A stretch of DNA of 64,000 nt from Gammaproteobacteria bacterium AqS3 (GTDB lineage: Bacteria; Pseudomonadota; Gammaproteobacteria; MEIF01; AqS3): NCBI GenBank assembly GCA_001750645.1, contig MEIF01000001.1, positions 9,179 to 73,178 of the forward strand, in the 5' to 3' direction. Under the pieces are notes generated by a model. That model was given only the letters and a program-made list of their open reading frames with translations. It was not told the DNA's origin and did not search any database. Within the stretch, counting starts at the first letter, position 1. Each line of letters opens with the position of its first letter. A program made the translations under genes and the position numbers. Shown one piece after another: positions 5,721-35,262 of this stretch.

Positions 5721-6472
5721 ATGACCCGCCTCTACATCCAGGACGTCACCCTGCGCGACGGCATGCACGCCATCCGCCACCAATATGACCTAGTGTGCGT
5801 GCGCGACATCGCCCGGGCGCCAGACGAGGCCTGAGTCGACGCCATTGAAGTCGCCCACGGCGACCGACTGTCGGGCTCGACCTTCAACTATGGCTTTGGA
5901 CGGTATGCCGACGAGGTGTGGATCGTCGAGGCTGCGAAGGTGTGCCGGCGGGCGCGGCTGATGAAGAGCTACGGCGCTGCTTGTGTTTATGTCACCGACT
6001 CCGGCGGCAGGCTGACCATCGCGGCGTACGCGAGCGGTATGAGGCGCACCGGCGGATTTTGCGGGGTGACATCGAACTCGAAATTCATGCGCATGAGAAT
6101 TTGTCGGTGTCTGTTGTGAATTCTGTCGTCGCCGTCGAATGCGGGGGGACTCGTGTTGACGCCTCGCTCGCTGGCATGGGCGCCGAAGCCGGCAACTGCC
6201 ACATAGAGGCGTTTATTGCGATGGCCGATCTGCACGGCTGGACGCACAGCTGCGACCTGTTCAAGCAGCAAGACGCCGCCGAGAAACTCGTGCGTCCGCT
6301 GCAGGACCGACCCGTCCAAGTTGATCGTGAGACCCTGATGCTACGCTATGCCGGGGTGTATTCATCCTTCCCGCGCCACGCCGAGGAAGCCACAGAACTG
6401 CACGGACTCGACCCCCGCGACATCCTGGTCGAACTCGACCGCCGCAAAATGGTCGACACCAGGAGGACATGA
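5721..6472 (+). pseudogene. mhpE: 4-hydroxy-2-oxovalerate aldolase MhpE/DmpG-like remnant with internal stop and frame breaks
   Basis: [24 protein letters not shown], then a stop. Further matches follow in other frames: [73 protein letters not shown]. Confidence 0.65.
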
Positions 6473-8641: not shown

Positions 8642-9213
8642 TTTTGTTCCAACAGCATCTTCGCAATTTCTTCAGAATTTTGATCACCAAGAAATGCATT
8701 CAGAACATCATCGGAGACACTACTCAATCTTGAACGAAACTTATCCTCAAAACCTGCATCTGAGAAAATTGGCTTGGCTTTAATTTCAGTAATAGGTAGC
8801 AAGGCATACTCAATATCTTTTGATGTATTTATATTGACACGAGCAATTTTCCGAGTCAGAGAAAAATCCTCCTCAATCTGTTCAACTTCACGCTGCCTAG
8901 ATTGATCTTTGTCTCCAGTCAAAAAGACAGAATAAACATTCCAAGCTTTATCTCCAGACATACGAAGTGCTGCACTATGCGAACTAAGTGCTTTTTGTTG
9001 TTCAAATTTCCATTTAGAAATAAGCTCTTCCGCAGATGAGAACACATAAATAAAGCCCATAATAGTTGCGCTTTCAAAACAAGTTATTGAATGTGAATTA
9101 TCAGAATACCATGACCAAGTGTCGTAACCAGAACCCCGGAGATATATTTCGGATTGTCTTGCGATATCCATTACAACTCCAACCGTTCTTGAGCTTGTTT
9201 GAAAGTTAACCAC
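8638..9213 (-). CDS. small protein of unknown function, LmuC/DdmB-like by position
   Basis: 191-aa ORF. Its stop overlaps the downstream SMC start by 4 nt (ATGA). It lies between the SIR2 and SMC genes. Confidence 0.5.
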   Translation of the reverse strand: MVNFQTSSRTVGVVMDIARQSEIYLRGSGYDTWSWYSDNSHSITCFESATIMGFIYVFSSAEELISKWKFEQQKALSSHSAALRMSGDKAWNVYSVFLTGDKDQSRQREVEQIEEDFSLTRKIARVNINTSKDIEYALLPITEIKAKPIFSDAGFEDKFRSRLSSVSDDVLNAFLGDQNSEEIAKMLLEQK

Positions 9214-12794: not shown

Positions 12795-12797
12795 GTT

Positions 12798-14915: not shown

Positions 14916-14978
14916 TTGAACTTATGGAATCAGGATGTGACTACAAAATAACCGGACAATATTACAGCAAGCCATATC

Positions 14979-16772
14979 TTAACCACCACCATGTTGGCGA
15001 GCCAAAGTATTCAATCTCACATATTGAGGATGCTTTTTAAGATGCGGTGCTTCATCCCGTATCGCATCAAGACAGCTCCTAAGTTGATCTACCGGTAAAT
15101 ACGGTATCTCGTTCTTGACAATCAAATCCAAAAACTCCAGTGCCTTGTCCGGATGATTTTTACAGAGGCCAGAATCATTAAGGGCATCGATTTGGTAGGA
15201 ATGGTCGGTTCTAATTGCACCCAACCAAGACCGAAGAAGATCGAATGCTTCTGGAAAGTTCTCTTCTGCCGCGATACATAAACGGCCTAGGTTTTCAGAG
15301 ATTTCAGGATCAACTCCCTGATTATCCTGTGGCCATATATCCTGTATGTAGGGAACAATTCGATTCTGCCAACAATCCCTCCGCTGCTCTCGCGAACCTT
15401 CAAGCACTTCCCATAATGTTTGAGCCGACCTACTTAAACCTTCTTTTGGAAGTTTTTTAATAGCCTTTGCCAGCTCTTTCTTTGTGAATGTTTCGCCCGC
15501 ATCAAGAGCAAGGAAAGTAAGGAAATCAGCATACTGACTACTGTGATCGCCCAAATCACCATAATGGTCTGGTTCTGCTGTATCAAGAAAATCGGCTTTG
15601 AGAGCATCCATCAGAGGAAGATATAAGCGGGGTGTCCAAAGAAAACTCCTCCAAGCCAAGTAAGCTTCTTGCGAAGATTTCCAGCTGAATAAGGGCAACA
15701 AATTTTCATGCGTCCACTTAGGATCAACCCTGAATATCGTGATGACATTGTCAGCTAGGAACACACGGCTATGACGATATTTTTTAATTTCGATGTTACA
15801 TAACTCAGTAAATATTGATCTAACTTTTTCATCTAATCCAAGATTATCTCTAAGTGATTGGCGATACCACCAGAATATTAATGCTTCGGTTGCATGCCCA
15901 ATTGGGTGGTTAATAGCTTCTCCGACAGGATCTTTTCTATGCTCATCATCTTCATTGTCAAAGTTAACAATCTCAACATTAGCTGCTTTTACGTTCTCAT
16001 GATCCGAACTGAGAATTCGTTCCACAAGCTCGAAAAAATATTCTTCTTGCCCATCAAGCACTTTGGCAATGTCCCGCAACCATAAACTAACATAACGAAC
16101 AAGATCTGGGAATACATCCTCTGGAACTTTAACTAAAGTCCAAGCCAACTTCTCCCAAGATTCTTGGAAACGCTTTTCTTCCGACCAAGCCCGCAGGGCG
16201 TCTCGCCAGCGCACAGAGCACCAATGATTCTCTTTAGCTAGTGCACACAAAGCATCAGAGGTCAAAGCGAAATTGTCCCGGCAACGCTGCCGCCAGTCAT
16301 CTCGCTGTAGGCCATCCGTGCCAGGGTTCTGTTTGAGCCACTTAATGAGTTCAGGGAGCGTGCTCGGTGTGGTGGTAAATTCAGTTGCCTCGTCACCTTC
16401 ACTCACCCGGAAAGAAAATTCGTCTCTTTGATCCTCTGACAGCTCCCACTCTGGATGCTGACTAGAAATATCTTTCAGCTGATCTTTAGCAATTTCACTC
16501 AAATCTGCTCCTGCTTCCTCCATTTTTGCCAGACGAAACCAAATGTTCATGTCTCTATATCTGCGCCAGTACTCAGGGTCAATACCCTCTCCATAAAGGG
16601 CGCGGGGCGGGCCTGCAAGAATGGCTTGTTCTAGCTCAGCCAGCAAGTCTTGTTCAAGTTTCGGTGCGAGTGACACCAGCAAACGCATAACTTCTCGCTT
16701 GGTTTCAGGGACCCAAAGCCATCGGTGCTCACTATCCAAGAGCCAGCCCAATGCACGACGATTAGAAATCAT
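14979..16772 (-). CDS. C-terminal half of DSR2-like protein, unit 2
   Basis: Start chosen at MISNRR, where the ATG overlaps the upstream TGA as ATGA at 16769-16772. The track's longer ORF is an N-terminal extension. The protein begins with the linker block RALGWLL..HRWLW..VMRLLVSL..ILAGP and continues through the same conserved blocks as unit 3 and the fused protein. Confidence 0.7.
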   Translation of the reverse strand: MISNRRALGWLLDSEHRWLWVPETKREVMRLLVSLAPKLEQDLLAELEQAILAGPPRALYGEGIDPEYWRRYRDMNIWFRLAKMEEAGADLSEIAKDQLKDISSQHPEWELSEDQRDEFSFRVSEGDEATEFTTTPSTLPELIKWLKQNPGTDGLQRDDWRQRCRDNFALTSDALCALAKENHWCSVRWRDALRAWSEEKRFQESWEKLAWTLVKVPEDVFPDLVRYVSLWLRDIAKVLDGQEEYFFELVERILSSDHENVKAANVEIVNFDNEDDEHRKDPVGEAINHPIGHATEALIFWWYRQSLRDNLGLDEKVRSIFTELCNIEIKKYRHSRVFLADNVITIFRVDPKWTHENLLPLFSWKSSQEAYLAWRSFLWTPRLYLPLMDALKADFLDTAEPDHYGDLGDHSSQYADFLTFLALDAGETFTKKELAKAIKKLPKEGLSRSAQTLWEVLEGSREQRRDCWQNRIVPYIQDIWPQDNQGVDPEISENLGRLCIAAEENFPEAFDLLRSWLGAIRTDHSYQIDALNDSGLCKNHPDKALEFLDLIVKNEIPYLPVDQLRSCLDAIRDEAPHLKKHPQYVRLNTLARQHGGG

Positions 16773-18706
16773 GAGCTTTCTGCCAAAGCTAAAAATACAA
16801 GCCTGCGAAATATTGGGTAACGAATACCCCACCAACGCTCCACCTCCATGGCTGCTTGCTCAGGGGATTCTTCTTTCAGAGCAATCCACGCATCCCAGGT
16901 CAGATCAATTAATGCAGTCCAATCATGAAAAGCTCTGTTTTGGGAATGCCTGCTAATGGATGGTTGATAGATATAGGACATGTCATTCATATCATCAGCC
17001 GCTTCAAGCCCCCTCATAAGATCAAGCACCGAACGCAACAAACTAGTAAATTCGGGCAGAAGTTCCGGCAGTGCTTTCTGCCACTGAGGATCATTAGAAA
17101 GTCTTTTGACAGCATCATGGACATTACCCGCTGATAATTTAATCTCCCAATTAACTAGGTCGTTGATGTGTTGAGGTTTTTCACCATCAGCATTCTCGAT
17201 CGAACCGCGGAATGGCTCGCTTAACGATATATATGGGGTCAGATTTTTTCTAAGTTCTCGACGCGAGGTCGGAGTGAACCCATATCGCTTGAATCGATCA
17301 TGCCAAAGATACATATCAAAGTTGCGTGCTCCGGGCTTAACACATCCTGTCATCAAGAGGCACCAAAGTTTCCACATTAATCGACTGGGAATACCATTGG
17401 GAGAATTTTGACGAATACGCCTCAATTCATCAATTTTACGCTTGTTTTTCAGCTCAGACAACTCGTTCAATCTATCTTCGATTAATCTCACAAATCTATC
17501 ATCCAATCTGTCACCGTACTGAGAAAGCCAAAGTAATAATCGCGGATCATTAAGATGACGTGTCAACCAGGGCATCAATTGTCGTGTCACATCGTCCCAA
17601 TTACCTCTTTGAACACCTGTTTCAAAGATATTGGTCAGGGGGCTTAGGTACAGCCAATCTAAAAATGGTGCCGAGTTATGCTCAGAAAAGCGTTTGGCAG
17701 GCAGGCCGGTAGGATCCTTCAAAGCCCATAACATCCGAGCAATAAAGTTATCCTCTTGAGTGCTCTCTCTGGGTTTTGTGCGAGCAAGTTCAATGACGAT
17801 CTGTTCCTTGCCTCTCACTCCATCACGATAAGTTTCAGCCCACCGCAATAAGGTCTTATGCAAGTAAGTGTGGCCACTATTTTCAAGGTACAAAATAGGT
17901 CTAACACTCTTTGCCTCCCATTCATGTCGAGACTGCTCTTCTTCATTTTCTGCATGGCTGCCAAAGGCAAAGACCTCTCTTGACATATTTTCAGGCGAAC
18001 GATCAGCGGCAAGTGCATCCATCATATAACGCAGCATTGGATCGCCAATGCTATACCCAACAAAACATACGGTGTAATTGCGAAACAATTCACTTAGAAA
18101 ACGTGCCGCCCAGCCATCTCTAAGATATGCCCTTCCAAAATCACCACTTGAAACAATTAAATCTCCCTGATTATCCCTGGGCCATTGTCCCGTCAAAAGA
18201 CCATGCAGATAGACCAATCCATCCCACTGATCATCTTTTGGAATGGGTAGCAGCGGTGCCTGAAAACGGTCGACTTTCAGTAATCTCTCGGCAATTGCTT
18301 TTTCAAATAGACGATCAAAGTTAGTCGTGACTAAATGCATAGAATTGCTGCGCGTCTTACCCAGTGTCAATAGAGCTTCGTGTGTGTCAGTGGGAGCATC
18401 AAGGCGTACCTTCAAAATATTGGCAAGTCCTTTTCTAATGGTTTTGGAACCGCCAGCTATATATTTTTCCATCAGATTAATAGCAATATCTAATTGACTA
18501 TCACAAATCGCCCTATTAATGGTGTCCCTGATTTGAGGATCAACCCTATCTGAAAAATTGTCATATAGCTTCCTTACCAACCCATCAAAACCCGGCAATC
18601 CAGCTGGATAGGAAATTCCAGCACCGCAGAAGAACACCACTCGACCATCCTCGTGTGCTTGTAACAAGGATTCTGGAATATCGGGGCCGTTGGGGATAAA
18701 TTGCAT
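16769..18706 (-). CDS. DSR2-like SIR2 domain protein, N-terminal half of unit 2
   Basis: MQFIPNGPDIPESLL, VVFFCGAGISYPAGLPGF, LVTTNFDRLFE, LVYLHGLL. Ends FRRLVFLALAESS, just before the linker block. Confidence 0.8.
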   Translation of the reverse strand: MQFIPNGPDIPESLLQAHEDGRVVFFCGAGISYPAGLPGFDGLVRKLYDNFSDRVDPQIRDTINRAICDSQLDIAINLMEKYIAGGSKTIRKGLANILKVRLDAPTDTHEALLTLGKTRSNSMHLVTTNFDRLFEKAIAERLLKVDRFQAPLLPIPKDDQWDGLVYLHGLLTGQWPRDNQGDLIVSSGDFGRAYLRDGWAARFLSELFRNYTVCFVGYSIGDPMLRYMMDALAADRSPENMSREVFAFGSHAENEEEQSRHEWEAKSVRPILYLENSGHTYLHKTLLRWAETYRDGVRGKEQIVIELARTKPRESTQEDNFIARMLWALKDPTGLPAKRFSEHNSAPFLDWLYLSPLTNIFETGVQRGNWDDVTRQLMPWLTRHLNDPRLLLWLSQYGDRLDDRFVRLIEDRLNELSELKNKRKIDELRRIRQNSPNGIPSRLMWKLWCLLMTGCVKPGARNFDMYLWHDRFKRYGFTPTSRRELRKNLTPYISLSEPFRGSIENADGEKPQHINDLVNWEIKLSAGNVHDAVKRLSNDPQWQKALPELLPEFTSLLRSVLDLMRGLEAADDMNDMSYIYQPSISRHSQNRAFHDWTALIDLTWDAWIALKEESPEQAAMEVERWWGIRYPIFRRLVFLALAESS

Positions 18707-18876
18707 CTGAATCTAAGAAAATGAAATAGAACCCTACATTTGACAACAAATCTCTTGCAGGCTGTCTATATGTGCTACAGACGAACAGGCAATTCTACAC
18801 CCACTATTTGGCAATTCTCCATAGCACTTAAAACCTTTATTGACCTAAGTAATAGGATCACGCAAAAAACAGAAGG

Positions 18877-19395
18877 TCAATTTCCCTTCTTATTAGCCTG
18901 AAATTCCTTATCCAACTCAAGAATGGCCTTCAAATTTAAGCGACAAATTTTTGGTGTTTTAGATAGCTCATGCCAAGCATAAACATACAACAAGTTTTCA
19001 CCATATTGCTCTACAGATTTAAGTATAGGTTCAATCTCCACTACATTTTCCCATATATCACTGGATTCCAAAGCATGCGGCAACTTGAAATATTCACGCG
19101 GAACAAGATTTCCCTGTACTGGGCTATTAATAATCTTTGCCCATCTATTCTTATACATCAGAAAATCCAAACGAGTTAGGTTAGTGCGCGAATATCCTCT
19201 ATTGCTTATAGACATGATAAGAAAAGGCGGTCGACGGGGCAGAATTCCTTCGTCGAAATAGCCTTTTTCTAGCTTCACATTAATATTTAGCTTAGGTTTA
19301 TTTGAGTGCTCTCAATAAACATTCCAGAAAAAAGTAAATAATCCGACAATTGCACCAACCCATGCTGCATATTCTGTATAGCTAAATTCTTTCAT
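18877..19395 (-). pseudogene. paralog of the N-terminal-TM small protein (10653..11174), carrying an in-frame TGA at 19312-19314
   Basis: MKEFSYTEYAAWVGAIVGLFTFFWNVY, then TGA, then the same frame continues to 18877. The N-terminus aligns with MEEFSYTDIAAWVGVFIATISLAWNIY. Total length is 173 codons, against 174 for the intact paralog. Confidence 0.55.
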
Positions 19396-20002
19396 CTTGC
19401 CCTCCATTATCAACTTGGTTAACCAAGCTCCCCTCCTCTCCTTCAGAGCATAAAGCTAGACACTCTTCGCGATTTTTGATCATATATTTCCAGATATCAT
19501 CTTCAAATGTATATGGCATCGTTGACAAACTGCCTGACCGCGTTGACACTATCTTTTTATCCACTAAGCCCATTACAGTTGCATTTCTAGAATTTCTATA
19601 GAATGTTTGATCCTTATTATTTAGACATTCCCATAAAATTTCTTTCTCTGGCACATTTAAATACTGGAGTTTCTTGATCTTATCGCCTAATAATTTTTGT
19701 TTCTCCTTAGATTCCTTTCGTCTTTGAAGAATATATTTCAAAATTCCTTTGGGCCCTAAAATACACATCCACACCAATGCAACTAAACTAAATAAACAAG
19801 ATAAAAAAATTATAGATTTTGTAAGAACAAGCCAAGTTTCAATATCAATAGATGTAGAAAGTCCATGCACGTCAATAAGTGCAACAACCTTATCCCAACA
19901 AACAAGAATAACTAAAGTACCCAGAGAAATAGTGCAAGCGGTAGGCTTCCCCCCATCACGCAGCAATGTTGAGAAAGCTGAAATTTCTGATATCACTGAC
20001 AT
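19382..20002 (-). CDS. hypothetical 2-TM membrane protein
   Basis: 206-aa ORF with two hydrophobic helices at ~25-45 and ~60-85 and a Lys-rich charged segment. It lies directly downstream of the fused DSR2-like gene. Confidence 0.45.
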   Translation of the reverse strand: MSVISEISAFSTLLRDGGKPTACTISLGTLVILVCWDKVVALIDVHGLSTSIDIETWLVLTKSIIFLSCLFSLVALVWMCILGPKGILKYILQRRKESKEKQKLLGDKIKKLQYLNVPEKEILWECLNNKDQTFYRNSRNATVMGLVDKKIVSTRSGSLSTMPYTFEDDIWKYMIKNREECLALCSEGEEGSLVNQVDNGGQDERI

Positions 20003-20050
20003 TCCCTAGCCCGCCCTTAACCATTGGGAGAAAATTTTCTGAATCATTTT

Positions 20051-23000
20051 TTAGCTGCCCTTTCGCTCTCGAACAAAATTCATCAGCTTTTCATATTGAT
20101 CGTTCTCTTTAACAAGTCTAGGTGCCTCTGTTCGTATGACCTTAAGACAAGTTTCAAGTTCATCCTCTGAGATCCAAAGGGTTTCATTTCCGATGACACG
20201 GTTCAAAAAATCTAGTGTTTTATCTGGATAGGTTTTACACCAATCTGATTGACTAAGAATATGAACCAAGAAAAAAGGATCTGATAATGTCTGAAGGAAT
20301 GGACTAATAAAATCAAAAATCTCCGGAAACAACTCTTTATCTACCATGCACAAGCGACCAAGACTTTCGGAAACTCCATCTAAAATATTCCCATTCTGTT
20401 TGGGAAAAATATTTTGCAAATAAGGTTTGATTTGATTTTCCCAACAGTCTTTTATTTCAACTTCCGGAGATTGCAGTGTTCTCTCTAATGCTTGAACCGC
20501 TCTTTGCAAACCTTCTGACGACAGTTTGCTAGTCACCTCTTTCAACTCTTCGTTATTGAATGTGCCATCCGGGTGGAGTGCAATAACAGTGATGAAATCA
20601 GCGTATTGGCCACTATGTTCGCCGAGCTTGTGGTAATGATTCACAGTGTCAAGAACATCGTGTTTGATTGAGCTCATTAAAGGAGGATATACGTAAGGAG
20701 ACCCCAAGAATCCTCTCCAAACGCAAGCCGCCTCGTCAGGAGATTTATCCCAGCTAAATAACGGTGACAGATGCTGGGCCGCCCAATCTGGATCCACGCC
20801 AAATAAAGTGCCCGCATAGTCGGCCAGCACCACACGGCCATGACGATATTTTTCTACATCTGTATTGCTGCATAACTCAGTGAAAATTGGCTTGATTTTC
20901 TCAGGTAATCCTTGATTGGGTTTGAGCGCCTGTCGATACCACCAACGTATCAGTGCCTCAGTAACACAGCCTACGGGATGATTTATGGCATCCAGGACAG
21001 GATCTCTGTCTATTTCCTCATCAAACCCAAGTTCTTCAGCGGTAAAATGCTTAACTCTTGGATCATCTTTGTCCTTTAGATTAAGGATTCGGTTTACAAG
21101 AGTGAAAAAATACTCCTCGTGCTCTTTAAAAGTTTTTGCAGTGGCCTCTAACCATCGAGCAACTTCAGTAGAGGTATCTTGAAGCACTTCTTCTGGGACA
21201 TTAATCAAAATCGGTGCCAGTTTGTTCCAAGATTTGTAAAGAAGTTCTCCCTCCGACCAAACCTGCAAGGCTTTATTCCAGCGTCTAGACGACCAATTAT
21301 TTTCTCCAGCCAACATGGATAGCAAATCAGATGCCGTATCAAACTCGTCACGACAATATTGCTCCCAATTGTCTTGTTTCCAAGGATTGGTGTCAGGGTT
21401 CTGCCTGAGGTATTCGATCAACTTCAAGCTGTTGCGAGGCATCTCAACTTGTTCAGGCTTCTGCGCTCCTTCACTGGTCCAGATAGGAAACTCATCACTC
21501 TCATCTTCCTGTAACTCCCATTCTGGATGATCAGCTTCAAGATTATCCAGCCGCTCTCTAGCTTGTTCACCTAAAACAACACCTGCATCAGCAATCTTTG
21601 CCAGTCTGAGCCAAATAGCCCCATCTTTGATCAGCTCGCGATGCTCAGGCTCAATATCATTCTGAAGCATGGCATCAGGCAAGCCGGCAAGAATCACGCT
21701 CTCCAGCTTCTCCAATCCTTCCGGCATCTCTTCTTGAAGCTTGGGAGTAAGTACCCTCAATAAACGCATGACTTCTCGTTTGGCATCAGACCCCCAAAGC
21801 CATCTGTATTCATCTGCCAAGAGCCAGTCCAATGCCAGATGGTTAGGTATTACCTCGTCTTGCGCTGCAGCGAAAAAGGCGAGCCTGCGAAACAATGGAT
21901 AAGGTATGTCCCACCAAGATTTCGCTTCCCTAGCGGCATGCTCAAGTGATTCCTCTGATGTCTCCTTCAAAGCGAGCCAGGCATCACGGACCAGATCAAT
22001 CAACACCGTCCAATCGTAGTAATTTTTGTTCTGGGGATGTCTACTGATCGAGGGCTGATATATGTAGGACAGATCTCGTTCACTATTTGCCCCCTCAAGT
22101 TCTTCCATAAGTTCGAGAGTATCTCTCAGTAGATTAGTAAATTCTGGCAAGAGTTCAGTGAGCTCAGATTTCCACAACTCATACTCACTAAGTTCTTTGA
22201 TGTATGAATGAACTTTGCCAACAGACAAGGTAATTTCCCAATTAACCAAATCTTTGATGCACTCAGGTTCACGCCCTTTATCATCAACCGTCCGATATGA
22301 CGGTTCACGCAGCAGTATACACGGCGACAGATTCTCACGAAGTTCCCGACGTAAAGTTAACGTAAGTCCATCCTGCTTGAATCGTTCACACCAGTGATGC
22401 ATGCGATACATATCACGATGGCCGGTCTTGGATTTGACATTTCCAGCAAGTAGCAGACGCCAAAGTTTCTGCATTGGCAAGTCCAGAATCCCATTGGGTA
22501 AATTTTCACGAATGTTTTTTAGCTTCGCTGCGTCACCATTACCTTCAAATCCGACCAGTACATCCAGACGGTTTTCAATTAGCCTGGTAATCTCATCATA
22601 TAGCGGCCCGTCGCGCTGAGAGAACCAAATCAGCAGTTTGGGATCATTAAGATAACGCATTAACCGGAGCCCCAGTTGCGGCATTACTTTTTTCCAATTA
22701 TTTCCCTGAGAACCTGCGTCTGCAATCTTTATCAAAAGTGGCAGCTGATCAAAAGAATCAATGGAATCAAGCTCATCAAAGCTCTCGGCGGGCAGATCTC
22801 TAGAATCACTTAATGCCCATAGCATTCGATCAACAACGGTATCTTCTTTGACACTTTCCAAGGGAGGAATTCTTACAGATGCGACGACAACCTGCTCCTT
22901 ACCCTGCACACCATCACTATACGCTTGTGCCCAGATTTTTAACGTTTCATGCAAACATTCATGCTCAGCATCTTCGCAATACAAAATAGGTTGAACGCCT

Positions 23001-23779
23001 TTAATGCCCCACTCATTTTCGACCTTTTCTTTCCCATCGCTTTTATAGCCTCCAAATGCATATATCGACGGCGATGTGCCTTTAATATCTAAAGAATCTA
23101 TAACATAACCTAGCACCCTATCACCAACGCTATGTCCTACAAAACAGATTACATATTTCTTGAATAATTCACGCAAAAAACTTGTTGCCCAATTATCATC
23201 ACCCATATATGCAAAACTAAAATCACGACTTGACAAAATCAGACGATCCAGTTCTGTAGCTATGGGTATATTACTTAAAAGGCCATGAATATAAATCAGT
23301 CCATTCCATCGATTTTTTAGAGAAGGCAGCAAAGGAGGCTGAAAACGTTCAACAGATAACGCCCCCTTATCAATTGCTCTTTCAAACAGACGGTCATAAT
23401 TGGTGGTGATCAAGCGCGTGCAATTATCTCGATTCCTACCAAGCGTAAGCAGTGCCTCGTGAGTTGCTATCTCATTCTGCATATCAGGTTTGGGGGTCAG
23501 AATATTTGGAAGCTCTCGTCTCACCATCTCTCGACCATTGAATGTATTTTTCTCCAGCAAGTGAATGGCCTTATCAAAATCACCAGCTTCTATTGCCAAT
23601 CTGGGCGCTGGATCATTAGGATCTTCAAATTTGGCCAAGAGCTGTTTCGCTAGACATTCATAGCCCGGCAAGCCTGCTTGGAAAGAAATCCCAGCACCGC
23701 AAATAAACACCACACGCCCATCCTCATGAGCTTGCAACAGATGCTCAGGAATATCAGGGCCGTTCGGGACAAATTTCAT
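20051..23779 (-). CDS. DSR2-like defense sirtuin, full-length fused form (SIR2 N-domain + long helical C-domain), unit 1
   Basis: 1242 aa. N-terminal MKFVPNGPDIPEHLL, VVFICGAGISFQAGLPGY, LITTNYDRLFE, LIYIHGLL. The middle carries the linker block LALDWLLADEYRWLW..VMRLLRVL..ILAGLP. The C-terminal blocks are INHPVGCVTEALIRWWYR, KYRHGRVVLADYA and YADFITVIALHPDG. It is collinear with the sum of the two split units. Confidence 0.8.
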   Translation of the reverse strand: MKFVPNGPDIPEHLLQAHEDGRVVFICGAGISFQAGLPGYECLAKQLLAKFEDPNDPAPRLAIEAGDFDKAIHLLEKNTFNGREMVRRELPNILTPKPDMQNEIATHEALLTLGRNRDNCTRLITTNYDRLFERAIDKGALSVERFQPPLLPSLKNRWNGLIYIHGLLSNIPIATELDRLILSSRDFSFAYMGDDNWATSFLRELFKKYVICFVGHSVGDRVLGYVIDSLDIKGTSPSIYAFGGYKSDGKEKVENEWGIKGVQPILYCEDAEHECLHETLKIWAQAYSDGVQGKEQVVVASVRIPPLESVKEDTVVDRMLWALSDSRDLPAESFDELDSIDSFDQLPLLIKIADAGSQGNNWKKVMPQLGLRLMRYLNDPKLLIWFSQRDGPLYDEITRLIENRLDVLVGFEGNGDAAKLKNIRENLPNGILDLPMQKLWRLLLAGNVKSKTGHRDMYRMHHWCERFKQDGLTLTLRRELRENLSPCILLREPSYRTVDDKGREPECIKDLVNWEITLSVGKVHSYIKELSEYELWKSELTELLPEFTNLLRDTLELMEELEGANSERDLSYIYQPSISRHPQNKNYYDWTVLIDLVRDAWLALKETSEESLEHAAREAKSWWDIPYPLFRRLAFFAAAQDEVIPNHLALDWLLADEYRWLWGSDAKREVMRLLRVLTPKLQEEMPEGLEKLESVILAGLPDAMLQNDIEPEHRELIKDGAIWLRLAKIADAGVVLGEQARERLDNLEADHPEWELQEDESDEFPIWTSEGAQKPEQVEMPRNSLKLIEYLRQNPDTNPWKQDNWEQYCRDEFDTASDLLSMLAGENNWSSRRWNKALQVWSEGELLYKSWNKLAPILINVPEEVLQDTSTEVARWLEATAKTFKEHEEYFFTLVNRILNLKDKDDPRVKHFTAEELGFDEEIDRDPVLDAINHPVGCVTEALIRWWYRQALKPNQGLPEKIKPIFTELCSNTDVEKYRHGRVVLADYAGTLFGVDPDWAAQHLSPLFSWDKSPDEAACVWRGFLGSPYVYPPLMSSIKHDVLDTVNHYHKLGEHSGQYADFITVIALHPDGTFNNEELKEVTSKLSSEGLQRAVQALERTLQSPEVEIKDCWENQIKPYLQNIFPKQNGNILDGVSESLGRLCMVDKELFPEIFDFISPFLQTLSDPFFLVHILSQSDWCKTYPDKTLDFLNRVIGNETLWISEDELETCLKVIRTEAPRLVKENDQYEKLMNFVRERKGS

Positions 23780-23848: not shown

Positions 23849-26800
23849 CTATGTCCCGGTCTTTACCGAAATTAAATCCATCAGTTCCGCATAAGTGCTG
23901 ACAACGTCATAGCGAACGTTTTTCGGTGGATCATCTTTACTAATCTCCTCGAAGAACCTTTGTGCGCACTTAATCTTGGCTTGCTCTTCCGGCCTCAGCT
24001 TCATCGACGAAAGGCTGCCCTTCGTTTCGGCAACAAAGTAGATATGACGCACATGGCCTTCTTCAAAGGAGATGGCCCAGTCAGGGTTATAGTCTCCGAC
24101 AGGTGTGGGGATTCGAAAGCCTCTGGGAAGCTTTGCATAGACGATCACTTCCTTTCTTGTATCCAGCTCATCCACAAACTTACGCTCGACAATGCTATCA
24201 ACAATGGCATAGTCAAACACATGTTTTTGAAGCTTTTTGGTGGCTTTGGAGAAGTCCTTCCCCGCCTGCGCCTCTGTGAAAATTCCCACATCATGCCGCT
24301 TGTCAACGGTGTCATAAGTCAGTTTTTCGATGACCATCGCCGCCTTTTGCTCTTTGATTAGCCTACCGGCTTCAAAAATGAACTGCTCAGGGTTTACTTT
24401 GAATTTATCAAACACTTCTTTCTGTATTCCGACAAGAATGTTTGCAACAGTTCGACGGGTCAAATGTGCCGCTTCAGCAATTTCATGTAAGAGATCGTAT
24501 TTGACACTGGAAGGCACAGGCTCCTCATACTCCATTGGAGTGCGTCTTTCTCTTACTTCAAAAATTCCATCATTTTGAACCTGCTCATGTGTTATAGGGT
24601 TGCCAGTCTGCTCACCCTCCTCAACCAGATATTTGAGCGGGGTGACTCTTAACTCCTGATCCAAAGCCTCGACACATTTTTCAACCAACTCATCGCTGTC
24701 AAAGTCCACTCGATAGATAGCCTGGTAATTAATACGTTCCCAAAGTTCTTGAAATTCCTTTTTGTTGAAGTTTTCGTTGAGAAGGTTCGTCTTGGGCCTG
24801 CGTCCATCCCCTATAAAATCAGCCAAAGCAGCGTCACTGTATACGCTGTCAATAAGCTGGAATATCTGCGGTGCATATTCCGCCAAGCCATTGGGCAATG
24901 GAGCCAAGGTTTCTTCTTTTTTGTCTTGATGATATTTGTCTGCCACCTGATCATCTAAATCCAAATAATCATTTTTGATTAAATAACGTTCGATCTGTCT
25001 AGCCATCTCCGGCGTTACTGGAACTTCTTTCTGTTCCAAGCGCAGCACCTTACCCTCAAAATATTCTTTGTTTGCTTTGCGCGGGCGCGAGCCGAGCGCC
25101 GCGGCAATTTCATCCTGCAAGTTTGACACAAAGTCTTTGTAACTCTCGCTGGCAACCACCGTCAGAACATTGATGTCATGCACATCGGCAGGATTGTCCA
25201 TGCGCTCACCAGCCTGATTGACACAGAGGCGCAATCCTCGCCCAACTTCCTGGCGGCGGGAAATCGTATTGTCACTGTGCTTCAGCATGCACATCGTGAA
25301 GACATTGGGATTGTCCCAGCCCTCTCGCAAGGCAGAGTGCGAAAAGATAAACCGCACCGGCTCTTCTTGGGATAAAAGCCTTTCTTTATTGCGGAGAATC
25401 AAGTCATAGGCACCTTCGTCCTCTGAATGCCCCTTTCCTTCTCCAGTTTTTCTCACGCTAGGATCAACCAAATGGCCGCTTTTCTTGTCAATCGAGAAGT
25501 AACCCTCATGCACTTTTGCGACCGGATCACGTTCAAGGAAGGTCCGATATGCTTGATGTTCTGCTGAAAGGCTCTCTGAATACTCCTTTTGAAGTTCCAA
25601 ATATTCCTCCTCAAATATCCGAGCGTATTCGCCTTTCGTATCTTCCTCTTCGTAATCACGGTATTTGGAAACAGAATCAATGAAGAATAGGGAGAGTACC
25701 TTAATCCCCTTGTCATAAAGCGTTTTTTCTTTTTCAAAATGTGCGCGGATGGTTTCACGAATTTGAATTCTCCGTTTGTGCTTTTCAGTGGGATCTTGAG
25801 TTGCCACACCTGCCGCCAGCTCCAGCCCATTTGAAAACTCCACAATATCCTTGTTCGCATCAATCTGTGAGATTTTGAACCCGCTATAGACCTGAAGGCC
25901 ATTTGAAGCCAACACCAGATCGTCTCTATACCTCAATCGCTTCACCTGCCTTTTGATCTTGCCGCCGGCCGTTTTGACCTCTATATCAATTCGGGCAACT
26001 GGTGCATTCTTGGAGACTTCAATCCCTTCAAGATACATGTATGCTTCGGTGCCGGACAGACCCTGCACTTGAATTCCGCGCACGGCAATTTTCTTAACCA
26101 GCTTTTGATTGAAGGCATCCAGCGCATCAAGACAATGCACCTTGTTGTAGGAAGTCTTATGAGTGGCTGAATAGCGCAGAATCATGAGAGGATTGAATTC
26201 TTCCAGCGCTTTTGTTGTTGCCTTGCCCCCCATCTTTTGCGGCTCATCCAAGACCAGGATCGGACGGTTGCTTGCAATCACATCTATAGGCTTGCGCGAC
26301 TGAAAATCATCAAGCTCCATGTAAATGCGGCGCTGATCTTTGCCCCGTGCTGCAAAAGCCTGAGTGTTGATCACCATAATGTTAATTCCCGCATCACTGG
26401 AGAAGCTCTCCAATTCGTGCAGACGCTTGGAGTTGTATATGAAAAACCGCGCCTTTTTATGATAGGTTTCTGCGAAGTGCTCAGCAGTGATTTGCAGAGA
26501 TTTATATACCCCCTCACGAATTGCGATGCTCGGCACCATGATGATGAACTTGGACCAACCATATCTTTTGTTCATCTCAAACATGGTTTTTATGTAGCAA
26601 TAAGTCTTGCCCGTCCCTGTCTCCATCTCAATATCAAGGTTATAGTCGCAATTCGAAGTGGAACTGAGTTCATTCGAAACAGTCAAATTCTGGCGAGTCT
26701 GCACAGCCTGAATATTCTTCAGCACCTCATCTTTTGTCAGCCTAATATTTGCATTTTTAAAACCATCTTCATTACGCCAGAGATACCTGGACTGGCCCGG

Positions 26801-26908
26801 ATCAATGCGATACGAGATGCCATCATTGCGCGGCTGGCCGATAAAACAATCGACAACTGCCCCAACAGCAGCCGTCTGATAAGCCTGTTCTTTGAACTTC
26901 AGTTTCAT
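23849..26908 (-). CDS. res: Type III restriction endonuclease Res subunit (helicase-nuclease)
   Basis: Helicase motif [16 protein letters not shown] and motif [12 protein letters not shown]. Start taken at MKLKFKEQ (ATG 26906-26908) with AAGGA 7 nt upstream. The track's earlier start is an extension. The gene lies 10 nt downstream of mod1. Confidence 0.85.
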
Positions 26909-26918
26909 ATCAACATCC

Positions 26919-28833
26919 TTAAATCGCCTTGACCACAGTCTCAGGTGAGAGCTGCTTGAAAATCTGCTCCGCATTGATCTTCAAATCATCACTCACAAAG
27001 CCGTTGTCTCGGAAAACAACACGCTCTGGCGTAAGCTCTGCAATCTTTCTAACCAGCTCTTCTGTTACGCCCTTTTCAAAGCAGGCGATGAGTGCATTGC
27101 CATCCACAAAAAAGACTCTCTTATCCGCAATAACTTCACTACTGATTGGCAGGGTCAAATCCACTCCCCAATCAACAAGAACTTGGAATAGAAGATCTTC
27201 ATGGGTTCGATCAGGTTTGATGTTATCCACCAAGTTTTTAAGGCTTTCTTGACCAGTCTGATCTGGCGTGTAATACACATCCTTCATATTAGATGTATCG
27301 ACCTTCAGGACGCGAAAGCCCACGTCACGGTTCCAGTCAGGATGACACTCTCCCTCAAGTATTTTGTCACCGGCTTGACGGATACGCTCCTTAGAAATTT
27401 CAGCTATTGTTGTGTATCCCCGCTTGAACGCAGGCAGACTGCCATCTATACCTGCCGGTATTTGAACCTGTATAAAACGCCTGTTTCCGCCATCGTTAGC
27501 ATTCAATTCCATAACAGCGTGTGCGGTAGTGGCCGAGCCTGCAAAAAAGTCCAATATGATTGCATCTTTGTTATTTCCGGTGACTGCCTCAATCGCATCA
27601 TAGACTGCCCAAAGACTTTTGGGAAAAGTAAACCCCGCCCCTTCCACAAGGGCATTCACGAGCTTGGTTCCATATTCATTGGCATCGTAACGCTTATCTG
27701 TCCAAACGCTTCTATACTTTCCGAAAGTTTTACCGATTTCGATCTGATATCCATCATCCGATTTTCGAGCACGCAGCATGGCTTCTATTTGCTCAACACT
27801 TTGACGTGAATATCGCCATTTACGCTCAATACCAGAGTTATCAATCGGGTATACATAGGCGACACCATCACACCACTCAGTTTGTTTCGGATGAAAATCA
27901 TCTGCACAAACATCGCCAAAACCGAGAATATTTCCACTCCTAACCTTAACTGGATAAAAACAATTTTTTGCATCGAACCTTTCAGAACCCCCCCCCCCAA
28001 TTTCTAAATTGCGACCAATTCACATTTTCTTCTTTAATTATTCGATTTCCTATTGATTTTGTTCCGCTGGGAAAAACAAAAATAAGATATTCATTAATGT
28101 AAGAAAAATTATTGCCTTGCTGTCCTCTTGGATTATGTATTACGCTTATATATGCATGTTCCCACGCAGTTCCACTAAATATCTCCTTCATTAAAACAGA
28201 GAGTGTTCCAAATTCATTTTCGTCAATGGCACAGACAAGAACCCCATCTTTTGTCAAAAGTGTTTTAGCGACTCTGAGTCTCTGGTGCATCATCGTTAGC
28301 CAATCAGAATGAAACCGGCCGCCAGTTTCAGGATTTGCAACTAATCTTCCGCCTTCTGTATCTCTCTGACCCGACCGTTCAAGAAAATCAGAAGTGTCTT
28401 CGCTAAAATTATTCTTATATATGAGATTTCTTCCAGTGTTATAAGGCGGGTCTATATATATCATTTTGACAGCACCAAGATAGGCCTCTTGCATAATCTT
28501 AAGAGCCTCAAAATTATCGCCTTCGATAAATACGTTCTGCGTCTCATCAAAATTTTTACTTTCGCAAATGCGGGGGCGAAGAGTTTTGATTATCTGCGCG
28601 TTGGCGAGTGCCATCGATTTCCGCTTGCCTGGCCAGTCCAATCGATATCTCTCTTGAGGCCCCTCAACAACTTGATTATTTAACTCTTGCCGGAGCTGAT
28701 CAAAATCCACAACCAAGCGAATCTGACCGGTCGTTTCATCATACGCTTCCGTCACGCAGTTTGGAAAAATCTCTCGGATTCTAGCAACCTTCTCCTGGCC
28801 CATATCAGAACTATGCATCTTTAGCTTGTCCAC
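26919..28833 (-). CDS. mod: Type III N6-adenine DNA methyltransferase Mod, paralog 1, interrupted at a G11 tract (phase-variable, OFF as sequenced)
   Basis: The N-terminal ORF 27982..28833 carries [10 protein letters not shown] (motif IV) and ends ...NWGGGF then TGA, right after the tract. The C-terminal ORF 26919..27779 carries [15 protein letters not shown] (motif I). The central region is homologous to Mod2/Mod3 (YPV..., WRYS...EQIEAM), and its frame relation to the flanks differs between the supplied bases and the ORF track. Confidence 0.85.
27988..27998. repeat. homopolymeric tract, C11 on the plus strand (G11 in mod1 coding sense)
   Basis: Read directly: ...cagaa ccccccccccc aatttc... 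Confidence 0.9.
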
Positions 28834-28875
28834 GGTAACACTCCCAATCGTCCCTCCCGTCTGATACCAAAGTAC

Positions 28876-30824
28876 TCAGATTACTTTGATATCAGTCCTT
28901 GGAGAGAGCTGCTTGAAGATTTGTTCGGCGTTGATTTTAACAGAGTCGCTAACAAATCCTCCGTTTCGAAAAACAACACGCTCAGGTTTGCGATCAGCAA
29001 GCTCTTTAACTAGTTCTTCAGTCACACTAGTTTCAAAGCAGGCGATGAGCACATTTCCATCTACAAAAAATATCTTCTTGTTTTGGATCACTTCATTGCT
29101 GATTGGCAATGCCAGATCCACTCCCCAATCAATGAGAACTTGAAACAAAAGGTCTTCATGCGTTCGGTCAGATTTGATGTTATCTACTAAATTTGCAAGG
29201 TTTTCTTGGTCAGTCTGATCTGGTGTGTAATACACATCCTTCATATTAGATGTATCGACCTTCAAAACACGAAAGCCTACATCACAATTCCGACTTGAGT
29301 CATGCTCTTCATTAACTATTTCCTCACCAGTTCTACGAATGCGTTCTTTTGCAATGTCAGAAATAGTCTTATAGCCCGCTTTAGAAGCTTCAGATTCCTC
29401 ATTGCAAATTTCGGGCAACTGCACCATAACAAAGCGCCGATTACCTCCGTCTTCGGCATTGAGTTGCATCACCGCATGTGCTGTCGTAGCTGAACCAGCG
29501 AAGAAATCAAGTGCTATATCACAGTCTCCTAAGGCAAATTTTGCAAAATGTTTCACAAGATCATATGGCTTAGGCTTATCAAAGATATCCTTCCCGAGCA
29601 GACCTTTCAAATATTCACTGCCTCGACGGGTTGGTATGGTTACGATACTTTTAAGATTATCTTCACTTTCTTGGATATAAAGCTTTCGATATGCCCTATC
29701 ATTTCGATATACGATTCGTCCTTCTTCAAAAAGCTGGTCAATATAGTCCTGCCCCATCCAATGTCGTCCCTCGGGTGCAGGAATGAGCTTGCCCCCAAAT
29801 TTTCTCGGAGGACCTGCCCCTTCTCCAGTTAGATCTACAGGGTAATAGACCTGCCAGTCTTCATCAATATTTACATAATTGCTCAACCATGAATAAAGCT
29901 TTGTTTTGTTTTCTTTATCTTTCTTTCTATAGTATTCAATTTTTTGCTTGATAAATTTAATTCCATCTTCTACTGAACCTCTGCCCTTTCTTATTTTTTT
30001 AATGCCGCTAAGGATATCCTCAGATTCTTTACGTTTTATTCTCCAGCTTTCAAGAAAAGATATATTCTTTGCATAAACCAAAACGTACTCATGCTCTATA
30101 GCAATATAATCACTTACTCTCGAAGAGTTATGCCAAATTATCTGACTTATAAAATTATTTTCTCCAAAAGTCTCATCACAGAGCTTCCTCAAATTTGCAA
30201 CTTCACCATCATCAATAGAAATAAAAATCACTCCATTATTAGCAAGCAAATTACGCGCAAGTTTGAGACGTGGCAACATCATTGACAACCAATCAGAATG
30301 AAAACGCCCAGAAGTTTCCGGATTAGAGACTAGGCGAGCACCATCTTTGTTACGTTGACCACCATCTTTTTCATACTCAAAAAGATTTTTTTTGAAGCTA
30401 TCCTTATAGATAAAGTCCTTACCCGTGTTATAAGGAGGATCAATATAAATCATTTTAATCTTTCCCAAATAAGTTTCTTGGATAAGTTTTAGTGCTTCAG
30501 CATTATCGCCTTCAATAAAGAGATTGCTTGTTTGGAAAAAATTTTTACTTTCTTCTAAATCAGGGCGTAGGGTTTTGAAAGTCGATATATTTCCCAGTGC
30601 AATCGCCTTACGCTTTCCCGGCCAATCTAAGCGGTAGTGCTCCGACCCCCCCCTTGAATTATTCCGTCGCCCAACTCCTGTCGAAGTTGATCAAAATCCA
30701 CAGCCAGGCGCACCTGACCAGTCTCTTCATCCCTAGACTCAGTGACACATCCCGGAAATAACTCGCGGATTTTGGCGATGTTATCTTGAGTCATATCTGA
30801 ACTGTGCATTTTGAGCTTGTCCAT
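28876..30824 (-). CDS. mod: Type III Mod methyltransferase, paralog 2, interrupted at a G8 tract near the 5' end (phase-variable, OFF as sequenced)
   Basis: N-terminal ORF 30627..30824 is [11 protein letters not shown]...LRQELGDGIIQGGG, then out of frame. Another frame continues [19 protein letters not shown]...[10 protein letters not shown] into the 530-aa ORF, which carries [13 protein letters not shown]. One extra G (G9) would fuse the two frames. Confidence 0.85.
30646..30653. repeat. homopolymeric tract C8 (G8 in mod2 coding sense)
   Basis: Read directly: ...tccga cccccccc ttgaatt... Confidence 0.9.
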
Positions 30825-30866
30825 AGCGGCAATACCAGCACCCCAGTCAACTTCACCTTCATAGCC

Positions 30867-32752
30867 TCAGATCGCTCTTACGTCTGTCTCGGGTGAGAGC
30901 TGCTTGAAGATTTGTTCGGCGTTGATTTTAGCAGTATCACTAGCAAAGCCGCTATTCCGGAAAACAGCACACTCGGGCTTATGGCTGGCAAGCTTCTTGA
31001 CTAGCCCCTCATTAATGCTCGACTCAAAACAGGCGATAAGTAAGCCGTCGTCAACGAAAAAGACGTTCTTGCCTTGAACCGTCTCCTTTCTGATAGATAG
31101 CGACAAGTCCAAGCCCCAATCAATAAGAACCTGGAATAACAAGTCTTCACCAGTTCGACCGTGCTTGATGTTATCGGATAAGTTGGAAAGGTTTTGCTGG
31201 TTAGTTTCCTCGGGCGTGTAGTACACGTCTTTCATGTTAGATGAATCCACTTTAAAGGCCCTAAATCCCACATCACGGTTCCAGTCGATATCACACTCTC
31301 CTTCAAGGACTTTATTTCCAGCCAGGTGGATTCGCTCTCTTGTAATTTCTGAGATAGTTGTAAAGCCCGAAGAAGCAGCTTCAGACTTTTCATCTACATT
31401 TTCAGCTGCCTGGACAAGAATAAACTGCCTGTTTTCTCCTGTTTCAGCACAAAGCTGAAACAGGGCATCAGCAGTCGTACCCGACCCAGCAAAAAAATCC
31501 ATCACGATATCGCCAGATGAACTTCCAATTCTAATGATCTCTTTTAATAGACGTGTGGGCTTGGGAAAGGTAAAAATTTTCTTTTTCCCAAAAAGCTCAT
31601 TAACTTCTGTTGATCCTTCATTATTATGACCAAAATCTGTGAAAGACCACCAAGTTGAGGGGACGACCCCATCCGGCACTTCACTTAAGTATCGTTTCAT
31701 TCTTGGACGTTCATAGCTCATGTCCGGACCCCAATAAAGTCTATCTTCAGCAACCATTTTTTCATGTTTTTCTTTGGAATATCTCCACGCATTTTCACCA
31801 GGCCACACATTCTCGCCAGTTTTTGGATGGACAATAGGGTAATAAAGCGTAGGACGATCTGCTTTTGAATTATTGCTGATGTAGTTATCAGATGACCAAG
31901 GTCCTCTAGGGTCATTGTCTGGATTTGCATATCTATCATCTTGCTTTTTTGATCGGGGTAGGAGATTGCGAGCAAAATGAGGAGATTTGCGAAAGACCAA
32001 TATGTGATCATGCATATCAGCAATTCCAGGATCATCATTAGATACTGAATATTTTTTCTGCCATATTATGTTGGCCACAAAATTAGTTTCACCAAAGATC
32101 TCGTCCCCAATCTTTCTGAGATTGGCGCACTCGCCATCATCAATACTAATGAAAATAACTCCATCATCGCTGAGTAGATTTTTAGCCAATCTTAAACGAG
32201 AGTACATCATAGCAATCCAATCAGAATGAAATCTTCCGTTTGACGAGGTATTAGCTATTAGCTTATCTCCAGATGCGTCCTGCTGAGCGGAAGAAATTAA
32301 AAAGTCATTCTTTTTGATTTTGAAATCATCTTCGTATATAAAATCATTTCCGGTGTTATAAGGAGGATCAATATAGATCATTTTGATGCGCCCTAAATAG
32401 GTTTCTTGGATGAGCTTCAGAACCTCAAGATTGTCACCTTCAATAAATAGGTTGCCGGTTTCGAAAAAGTTTTTGCTGGCCTCTACATCAGGACGCAATG
32501 TTTTTGAAATTGGCGTATTGGCCAGTGCAATCGCCTCTCGCTTTCCTGGCCAATCCAAGCGATATCGCTCTACCCCCCCCCATCAATTTGCTGATCACCC
32601 AACTCCTGTCGAAGGCGGTCAAAGTCCACAGCCAAGCGCAACTCGCCAGTGTCCTCATCAATAACCTCGGTAACGCATCCTGGAAACAGGTCACGGATTT
32701 TCGCAATGTTGGCTTGCGTTGGATCAGGGCTGTGCATTTTGAGTTTGTTCAT
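30867..32752 (-). CDS. mod: Type III Mod methyltransferase, paralog 3, interrupted at a G9 tract near the 5' end (phase-variable, OFF as sequenced)
   Basis: N-terminal piece is MNKLKMHSPDP...LRQELGDQQIDGGG then TAG. Another frame continues [18 protein letters not shown]...[10 protein letters not shown] into the 563-aa ORF, which carries DFFAGSGTTADAL. G10 would fuse the frames. Confidence 0.85.
32573..32581. repeat. homopolymeric tract C9 (G9 in mod3 coding sense)
   Basis: Read directly: ...tctac ccccccccc atcaattt... Confidence 0.9.
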
Positions 32753-33029
32753 GATCGCATCCCCCTGCACCCGCGCTACTGTCACGGACGGCCTATTCTA
32801 AATATCGCAGCCCCTTCTATCAATGCCTAGAACTTGCCGAGGTATGTGCCCCTTTTCATCCAGCAATTCAGAGAGCCAATGCTCCCAACCAAGACTGATG
32901 AAGGCGACAATCAGCAAGATGGCTGATGCACTACATAGCAAGCCCACATCACCAGAGCGAATGGTTTGCCATATAGATGCCGGTCGTGTATAAAGCCCGC
33001 CAGCTGAGGCGGGACATAGGGAGACAACC

Positions 33030-34540: not shown

Positions 34541-34786
34541 ATGAGTAAATTAAACTGGATATATGCCTTGGTGGCGGTTTTGCTTGCAGTCATTCTTTTC
34601 ATGAACTTTGTCAATTACGAAAGATTGGACGAGCTGGAAGAAGGAGCTGTCAAGACCATAGATGCACAGAAGGCGCAGATAGACAAACAGAAGGCGCAGA
34701 TAGACAAACAGAAGGCGCAGATAGAGGAGCAGAAAAAGCTCCTGGCCATTCTGGAGCAAAAGTGTGAAAAGGCTCCGCCAAAATGA
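34541..34786 (+). CDS. small membrane-anchored coiled-coil protein with QKAQIDK heptad repeats
   Basis: N-terminal TM helix IYALVAVLLAVILFM, then three copies of QKAQIDK encoded by a 21-nt tandem repeat. Confidence 0.5.
   Translation: MSKLNWIYALVAVLLAVILFMNFVNYERLDELEEGAVKTIDAQKAQIDKQKAQIDKQKAQIEEQKKLLAILEQKCEKAPPK
34667..34729 (+). repeat. 21-nt tandem repeat, about three copies of cagaaggcgcagatagacaaa, in frame
   Basis: Copies at 34667-34687, 34688-34708 and a diverged copy at 34709-34729. Confidence 0.85.
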
Positions 34787-34890: not shown

Positions 34891-34900
34891 CCCCCCCCCC
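34891..34900. repeat. homopolymeric tract C10, intergenic between convergent 3' ends
   Basis: Read directly: ...cttctta cccccccccc tcaccc... Confidence 0.85.
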
Positions 34901-34905
34901 TCACC

Positions 34906-35262
34906 CTACTGCCTCTCCAGTATCTCCGCAACCAAATCCTCGGCTGTTCCGATGTATTTCTCGCGGCCGCTGAACAGGGTGATGACCTCCTGAGTAAAGA
35001 ATCCCTTGACTCGCACAAAGCTGACAAAGCCGTTCGGGCATCGGTACAAAACCAGGGTGGATGTCGCCGCCAGCAATGGCTCGGCCCCGTCCAGGCAGTC
35101 AATGCGATGATCCTGCCCGCAGCCGCATTCATAAAACAGGTTTTCAAATCTGGATAAATTGAGGAACTCCGTCGTCCTGAAATAAATCCCCTTTATCTCC
35201 TCGTCGAACATCTCTTTTGTTTCCAATAGTTTCATTTTCTCCTCCCGAATTCGGCGCTTCAT
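34906..35262 (-). CDS. hypothetical Cys-containing protein
   Basis: 118-aa ORF (CGCGQDHRIDC...CPNGF). Its start overlaps the stop of the downstream hydrolase by 4 nt. Confidence 0.4.
   Translation of the reverse strand: MKRRIREEKMKLLETKEMFDEEIKGIYFRTTEFLNLSRFENLFYECGCGQDHRIDCLDGAEPLLAATSTLVLYRCPNGFVSFVRVKGFFTQEVITLFSGREKYIGTAEDLVAEILERQ

Follow-up and report, generated by a model that had tools for sequence, protein, structure and literature searches.

Type III restriction-modification systems in which several methyltransferase (mod) genes, each with its own simple-sequence repeat, share one restriction (res) gene are known from mollicutes. Namely, Mycoplasma bovis PG45 carries M1-M3.Mbo45ORF167P, three co-located mods whose 5' and 3' domains are conserved, whose central target-recognition domains (TRDs) vary, and each of which contains a GA[n] tract (Atack et al. 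2018 NAR, PMC5909438). The locus consists of three mods and one res, with tracts of 11, 14 and 24 AG units, and in the sequenced state mod1 is out of frame; once its repeat is put in frame, Mod1 and Res give an active Mod2Res1 enzyme, Mbo45V, which recognises YAATC, and M. pulmonis is said, in the same preprint, to have a similar cluster (Ahmed et al. 2026, bioRxiv 10.64898/2026.05.01.722158). Here we analyse a locus in a window of 64,000 nucleotides (nt), the whole stretch of contig MEIF01000001.1 studied, from the gammaproteobacterium AqS3. The sponge Amphimedon queenslandica harbours three extracellular symbionts that are passed on maternally, and AqS3 is one of them. Judged from its sequence, this locus is a Type III cluster, mod3-mod2-mod1-res, in which the three mods differ in their TRDs and Res is intact. 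Such a three-mod array had been taken in the initial annotation to be undescribed, which Mbo45ORF167P contradicts; the AqS3 locus is a convergent poly-G example of a design already described in M. bovis, and it opens no new mechanism class.

The similarity of the two loci extends to a single res, to three co-located and co-directional mods of which the last abuts res, to conserved ends around variable central TRDs, and to a separate simple-sequence repeat in every mod. That said, the M. bovis repeats are AG/GA dinucleotides, all at one site, while those of AqS3 are poly-G at two sites, one of them inside a TRD, and the hosts are a mollicute pathogen in the one case and a gammaproteobacterial sponge symbiont in the other. 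The M. bovis Mods are approximately 70% identical to each other overall. A repeat at a shared site, inherited by duplication as in M. bovis, is not what is found here, the mod1 tract lying in the TRD and those of mod2 and mod3 at codon ~58. Moreover, Mod3 aligns with Mbo45V (chain 7DSU) over the methyltransferase core at 97 bits (E = 8e-27), compared with 262 bits against the Helicobacter pylori Mod 6K0W. In other words, the relationship to the Mycoplasma Mods is only distant, not the close one of an array of common descent, and therefore we regard the design as convergent.

Neisseria and H. pylori are known to have several mods per genome that switch independently, at separate loci (Atack et al. 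2018, PMC5909438). As would be the case in AqS3, these phasevarion genes, modA, modB and modD of Neisseria and modH, modJ and modL of H. pylori, are gated by simple-sequence repeats and give combinatorial methylation states, but they lie at separate loci with a res of their own, often inactive, rather than in one array with a single intact res; regulon effects have been shown for those systems and are hypothetical for AqS3. In the H. pylori mods the repeats are homopolymeric G tracts. Phase-variable Type I systems that have several hsdS genes, such as M. pulmonis hsd and Streptococcus pneumoniae ivr, likewise join one machinery to alternative specificity modules and produce subpopulations with different methylomes, but they do so by site-specific or homologous inversion between hsdS copies. 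A literature search returned no paper connecting phase-variable restriction-modification systems with sponge symbionts.

The features of the AqS3 locus are as follows (aa, amino acids).

23849-26908, minus strand: res, intact Type III restriction subunit of 1019 aa, its ATG 10 nt past the mod1 stop
26919-28833, minus strand: mod1, GTG start, abutting res upstream, 637 aa with G10 or G13
27988-27998, minus strand: mod1 G11 tract, codons ~279-282 (W-G-G-G), within the TRD
28834-28875, minus strand: mod2-mod1 spacer of 42 nt, with a GGGAG Shine-Dalgarno-like motif before the GTG start
28876-30824, minus strand: mod2, 649 aa with G9 or G6
30646-30653, minus strand: mod2 G8 tract, at the site equivalent to that of the mod3 tract
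30825-30866, minus strand: mod3-mod2 spacer of 42 nt, unrelated in sequence to the mod2-mod1 spacer
30867-32752, minus strand: mod3, promoter-proximal Type III methyltransferase gene, 628 aa with G10 or G7
32573-32581, minus strand: mod3 G9 tract, codons 58-60 (Gly-Gly-Gly), in the linker that joins the N-terminal module of ~60 aa to the methyltransferase core
32795-32823, minus strand: candidate operon promoter, TTGATA-17-TAGAAT, 10 of 12 matches, ~40 nt upstream of the mod3 ATG

The gene coordinates, the strand and both 42-nt spacers agree with the initial annotation, as do the positions and lengths of the tracts, which appear on the plus strand as C runs of 11, 8 and 9. One additional G restores mod2 (to G9) and mod3 (to G10), as had been proposed; the same step does not restore mod1, which needs either the loss of one G (G10) or the gain of two (G13). 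As assembled, translation ends prematurely after 283 aa in mod1, after 65 aa in mod2 and after 60 aa in mod3, where the G9 tract is followed directly on its 3' side by a TAG at codon 61. With one slippage step each mod is open from end to end (628-649 aa) and shows no further stop, its G run being its sole lesion, with no second one across ~1900 codons. In this respect the mods are built as phase-variable mods are, with a simple-sequence repeat inside each open reading frame (ORF) that sets the frame and a change of one G that switches the gene. The earlier statement that all three mods are OFF holds for the assembled sequence, but the assembly is a metagenome-assembled genome made from Illumina reads with HiRise scaffolding of an uncultured symbiont, and the state is therefore that of a population consensus and not of a clone. 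One further point concerns mod3: a TTG at 32558 (minus strand), 15 nt beyond its OFF-state TAG, opens a 563-aa ORF (MDWPGKREA...) spanning the whole region homologous to solved Mod structures, so that a re-initiated, N-truncated Mod3 is conceivable; mod2 has no equivalent start.

As for the proteins themselves, Pfam N6_N4_Mtase (PF01555) matches Mod1, Mod2 and Mod3, which are homologous to the EcoP15I Mod (4ZCF) and to the H. pylori Mod (6K0W). The motifs named earlier are indeed present in all three: DPPY (motif IV) at aa 128-129 and after it FFAGS(A/G)TT (motif I) at aa 420-441, with the TRD between them as in beta-class N6-adenine/N4-cytosine methyltransferases, and a C-terminal motif, [13 protein letters not shown], that is identical among the three. 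Res matches Pfam ResIII and RE_endonuc as well as, over its full length, PADLOC REase_III (1075 bits), and carries the motifs [20 protein letters not shown] and PD...E-x-K; it has the Type III architecture of an SF2 helicase/ATPase at the N-terminus and a PD-(D/E)xK endonuclease at the C-terminus. The layout, with a mod directly upstream of res and co-directional with it, is that of a Type III system and recurs in approximately 60 relatives. The N- and C-terminal parts of the three Mods are 55-85% identical, compared with 2-30% in the central target-recognition region; the proposal of three different, unrelated TRDs is thus borne out, while the N-termini, described before as near-identical, share only 64-78% of their residues and 60-80% of their nucleotides. 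Overall, Mod1 is 76% identical (81% in the TRD) to an intact Reyranella Mod (locus L035), and in its TRD Mod3 matches an intact Brevundimonas Mod (L004) at 83% identity. Since these counterparts belong to intact single-mod systems, we conclude that the mod1 and mod3 TRDs represent real specificities. The TRD of mod2 has no close counterpart (at most 33% identity) among 80 related loci, which were collected from species-representative genomes as loci with Res relatives of 47-75% identity, and its best full-length homolog (P0122) is 66% identical. The nearest homologs diverge by ~24-30% at the amino-acid level.

Could the tracts be there by chance? Within the window, which contains no Ns, the only G/C homopolymers of at least 8, read on the plus strand, are C11 at 27988-27998, C8 at 30646-30653, C9 at 32573-32581 and C10 at 34891-34900, and the first three of these four fall within mod genes. 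In 300 first-order Markov resamples of the 5.8-kb array, 0.04 such runs were expected, and the three observed were reached in none of the 300, an approximately 75-fold over-representation. Conversely, in the native DNA at 36001-64000 (28 kb, 66% guanine plus cytosine, GC), there is no run of at least 7, compared with 5.9 expected from its dinucleotide content. A chance origin of the array tracts is excluded: the host genome strongly avoids slippage-prone runs, yet the mods concentrate them.

The relatives allow the origin of these tracts to be traced. None of the 80 related loci has a G/C run of at least 7 within a mod. A scan of 241 million JGI metagenome records for G8 or longer just upstream of codons for D-W-P-G-K-R/K, the mod2/mod3 site, returned two matches, both due to chance. 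Both were rejected as tract-bearing relatives, the first (L083) being a contig full of G runs with no Mod homology and the second (L084) having no Mod N-terminus in its upstream region. Relatives and metagenome matches thus being free of such tracts, it follows that the tracts arose in the AqS3 lineage. In particular, the intact Reyranella gene reads TGG GGT GGG GAA at the mod1 tract site, inside the conserved motif FRNWGGESER, from which it follows that the uninterrupted G11 run of mod1 arose by substitutions in the AqS3 lineage; the ancestral sequence being still legible in relatives, the step to G11 provides a clean case of contingency-locus building. At the mod2/mod3 site, relatives read GAG GGT CCG or GAA GGG GCA, and mod1 has only GGGG there. 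Tracts at two different sites, both formed from G-rich ancestral codons, point to at least two independent origins within one locus. Homology of the Mods to solved Mod structures starts at residue ~60, just after the mod2/mod3 tract, and since this tract lies in a linker, extra glycines should be tolerated there.

Our preferred reading, in which we place moderate confidence, is that the locus is a Type III operon of three Mods with common ends and different TRDs, each gated by its own poly-G slippage tract; its layout is real and probably switchable. Slipped-strand mispairing during replication would then alter a tract by one G and bring the mod into or out of frame, and the cells of a population would differ in which Mods are active, with as many as 8 genotypes. 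Cleavage by Type III enzymes is ATP-dependent and carried out by a Mod2Res1 complex at two unmethylated sites in inverse orientation. Type III Res finds and acts on DNA only in complex with Mod, and for this reason each Mod that is ON would be expected to add one restriction specificity along with one methylation motif, while with all three OFF restriction would be silent and the state harmless to the cell. The four genes appear to form one operon; if they do, an upstream premature stop would probably lower the expression of the downstream mods and of res through polarity, and the switches would likely be hierarchical rather than fully independent. That the tracts slip, that the Mods are active and work with one Res, and that there is polarity or any regulatory effect are all things that we infer; that said, the activity of the M. 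bovis Mod1 and Res once the repeat is in frame is a precedent for such a system. A more ambitious proposal, tentative and on the whole rather doubtful, is that the locus works as a hierarchical switch, epigenetic and defensive at once, in an extracellular symbiont inherited vertically, convergent with Mycoplasma, with poly-G tracts formed de novo at two sites, polarity that damps the downstream genes, possibly mixed Mod dimers, and mosaic methylomes and restriction barriers in each sponge. Should the tracts indeed slip, a design in which several switchable Mods share one Res will have evolved more than once, outside mollicute pathogens, in an environmental, host-restricted symbiont, and AqS3 populations in the sponge holobiont would be epigenetically and immunologically heterogeneous.

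Several observations weigh against this picture of a switch, and some of them are what one would expect of simple decay, in which selection on the defence island of a vertically inherited symbiont is relaxed, its mods have become pseudogenes, homopolymers break first, and there is no useful reversible switching. We consider decay unlikely on balance, but a serious rival to switching nonetheless. All three mods are OFF at once. Two of the three adjacent Dsr1 paralogs are broken, one by a TAG codon and one by a frameshift in non-repetitive sequence. What is more, of 73 N-module positions, near-invariant across 57 intact relatives (changes there average 1.5, with a maximum of 7), 8 are changed in mod1 and 7 in mod2, above almost all of those relatives, while mod3, with 3 of 73, is normal. 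A stable, maternally inherited host association could also lower phage pressure. Independently of decay, the locus is present in one assembly only, so that no variation in tract length can be observed; the evidence for a single operon is weak, promoter-like sites occurring at chance level; and G8 is near the lower limit for frequent slippage. However, decay leaves unexplained three uninterrupted runs of G8-G11 that relatives do not have and that are avoided elsewhere in the genome. It also has to account for the ~1900 codons free of any second lesion and for the full conservation of Res and of the Mod C-modules, in which 0-1 of 35 near-invariant sites are changed, as in intact relatives. Finally, several of the odd N-module substitutions fall at positions shared by different paralogs, which points to altered constraint rather than to random decay, although it does not settle the question.

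Another way to dispense with an all-OFF locus is to suppose that the tracts are real while their assembled lengths are consensus or homopolymer miscalls, at least one mod being in frame in most cells and the OFF state of all three an artefact. The assembly being a population consensus of Illumina and HiRise data from an uncultured symbiont, every gene being exactly one G away from in-frame, and indel error growing with the length of a G run, this is a natural suspicion, yet we find it improbable: Illumina consensus at runs of 8-11 is usually right at good coverage, and three independent errors in two directions (+1, +1 and -1) would be needed. In any case, miscalls would alter the switch state and not the nature of the locus. 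Very improbable, in our view, is that recombination between the paralogs, and not slippage, changes the specificity, TRDs being shuffled or deleted in the manner of the hsdS shufflons of Type I systems. The directly repeated conserved ends around different TRDs could serve such exchange, and a mod-mod chimera does exist in a Bathymodiolus symbiont, but all the copies point the same way, their DNA identity is no more than 66-77%, and recombination between direct repeats deletes copies rather than switching them reversibly. The only inverted repeats at the locus are three weak pairs of 19-24 nt, none of them significant, and no recombinase domain was found in the flanking ORFs; with neither meaningful inverted repeats nor a recombinase nearby, a shufflon was excluded.

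Returning to the three-mod operon, how might it have come about? Almost all of the 80 related loci have a single mod directly upstream of res, extra mods being confined to L048 and L018, with two each, and L021, with a partial extra copy. The nearest relatives of the locus are single-mod alphaproteobacterial systems, and the closest Res (76% identity), that of Ruegeria pomeroyi (L085), is likewise accompanied by one mod. In that genome the order is SNF2 helicase-DUF4391-mod-res, followed by McrBC (L085, 3988-13039); the AqS3 locus has neither the SNF2 helicase nor DUF4391. An Eubacteriales metagenome-assembled genome (L048, 6222-13099) has two intact tandem mods, 67% identical and 12 nt apart, before res, and one of Pseudohongiella (L018, 578-13108) has two mods, 63% identical, parted from each other and from res by other ORFs; neither locus has repeats. 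These two belong to the same Mod/Res family as AqS3 (Res 50-62% identical) and also have two intact mods with different TRDs upstream of one res, but their mods are free of homopolymer tracts and in frame, and we therefore regard them as constitutive multi-specificity systems and not as switchable ones.

In neighbour-joining trees of 60 family sequences (the three window Mods and 57 relatives), computed without bootstrap support, the three window C-modules group together to the exclusion of all others, a pattern consistent with adaptation to a single Res. Among the N-modules, those of mod2 and mod3 are sisters, while that of mod1 groups with the Reyranella Mod whose TRD resembles its own. These trees are suggestive, but only suggestive, of an array formed by duplication and subsequent horizontal replacement of TRDs and, in mod1, of the N-module as well; the same route has been proposed for M. 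bovis (Atack et al. 2018, PMC5909438). The DNA directly flanking the tracts differs between mod2 and mod3, which argues against recent gene conversion. A recent duplication or gene conversion was accordingly rejected, the conserved ends sharing only 60-80% of their DNA, and the low identity of these ends, the unrelated spacers and the differing tract flanks together indicate that the mod paralogs are old.

The Bathymodiolus chimera mentioned above comes from a gill symbiont of B. platifrons (L081, 8985-12001; BDMN01000066.1). There, a near-complete Mod jumps, between ...NALVACFD and [16 protein letters not shown]..., into a second DPPY-TRD-FFSGSATT module, after which the contig ends; tandem mods have here either recombined or been collapsed by the assembly. 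There is a C10 run ~260 nt upstream (L081:8722), and TIR and SIR2-HerA defence genes adjoin.

As for transcription signals, the sigma-70-like site at 32795-32823 is the best in a 10-kb scan, in which the total number of sites equals the chance expectation; the overall yield of the promoter and terminator scan was no better than chance, and an Rfam scan of the locus gave no match.

The locus lies within an island of 36-47% GC, at ~6-36 kb of the window, next to DNA of 63-70% GC, and this low-GC stretch is a defence island, probably acquired horizontally. A search of the window revealed neither an integrase nor a tRNA. In homology searches, Res and the in-frame Mod2 matched at 90% identity or more only the AqS3 record itself (Res 100%, P0001), and when the Dsr1-like SIR2 protein (20051-23779) and Res were looked up by exact sequence, the latter with a query one N-terminal codon too long, nothing was returned. 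Downstream of res stand three tandem Dsr1 (SIR2) paralogs (11316-23779, minus strand), 41-49% identical to each other, and thus two defence genes, mod and Dsr1, are triplicated in one island. A GNAT gene, an HNH gene and small ORFs lie upstream of mod3. The neighbouring features are the following.

6575-8641, minus strand: Lamassu-like LmuB/SMC ATPase
8638-9213, minus strand: small ORF next to LmuB
9171-10550, minus strand: weak SIR2-domain protein
11316-14915, minus strand: Dsr1 copy C, with an in-frame TAG at 12798-12800
14979-18706, minus strand: Dsr1 copy B, split by a frameshift near 16770-16817, in non-repetitive sequence
19382-20002, minus strand: SieB-like ORF
20051-23779, minus strand: Dsr1 copy A, intact, 1242 aa

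At the left edge of the island, 5918-6472 (plus strand) encodes a truncated HMGL/DmpG-like aldolase fragment of 184 aa, the C-terminal part only, and at the right edge, at ~36 kb, GC rises from ~50% to 63-70%. Close to this right edge lies the fourth long tract, an intergenic G10 on the minus strand (34891-34900). It begins 5 nt past the stop of a 118-aa ORF without a Pfam match (34906-35262, minus strand) and, on its other side, looks towards the end of a plus-strand ORF of 81 aa (34541-34786), which contains three 21-nt tandem repeats (34658-34734) encoding QKAQIDK heptads after a hydrophobic N-terminus.

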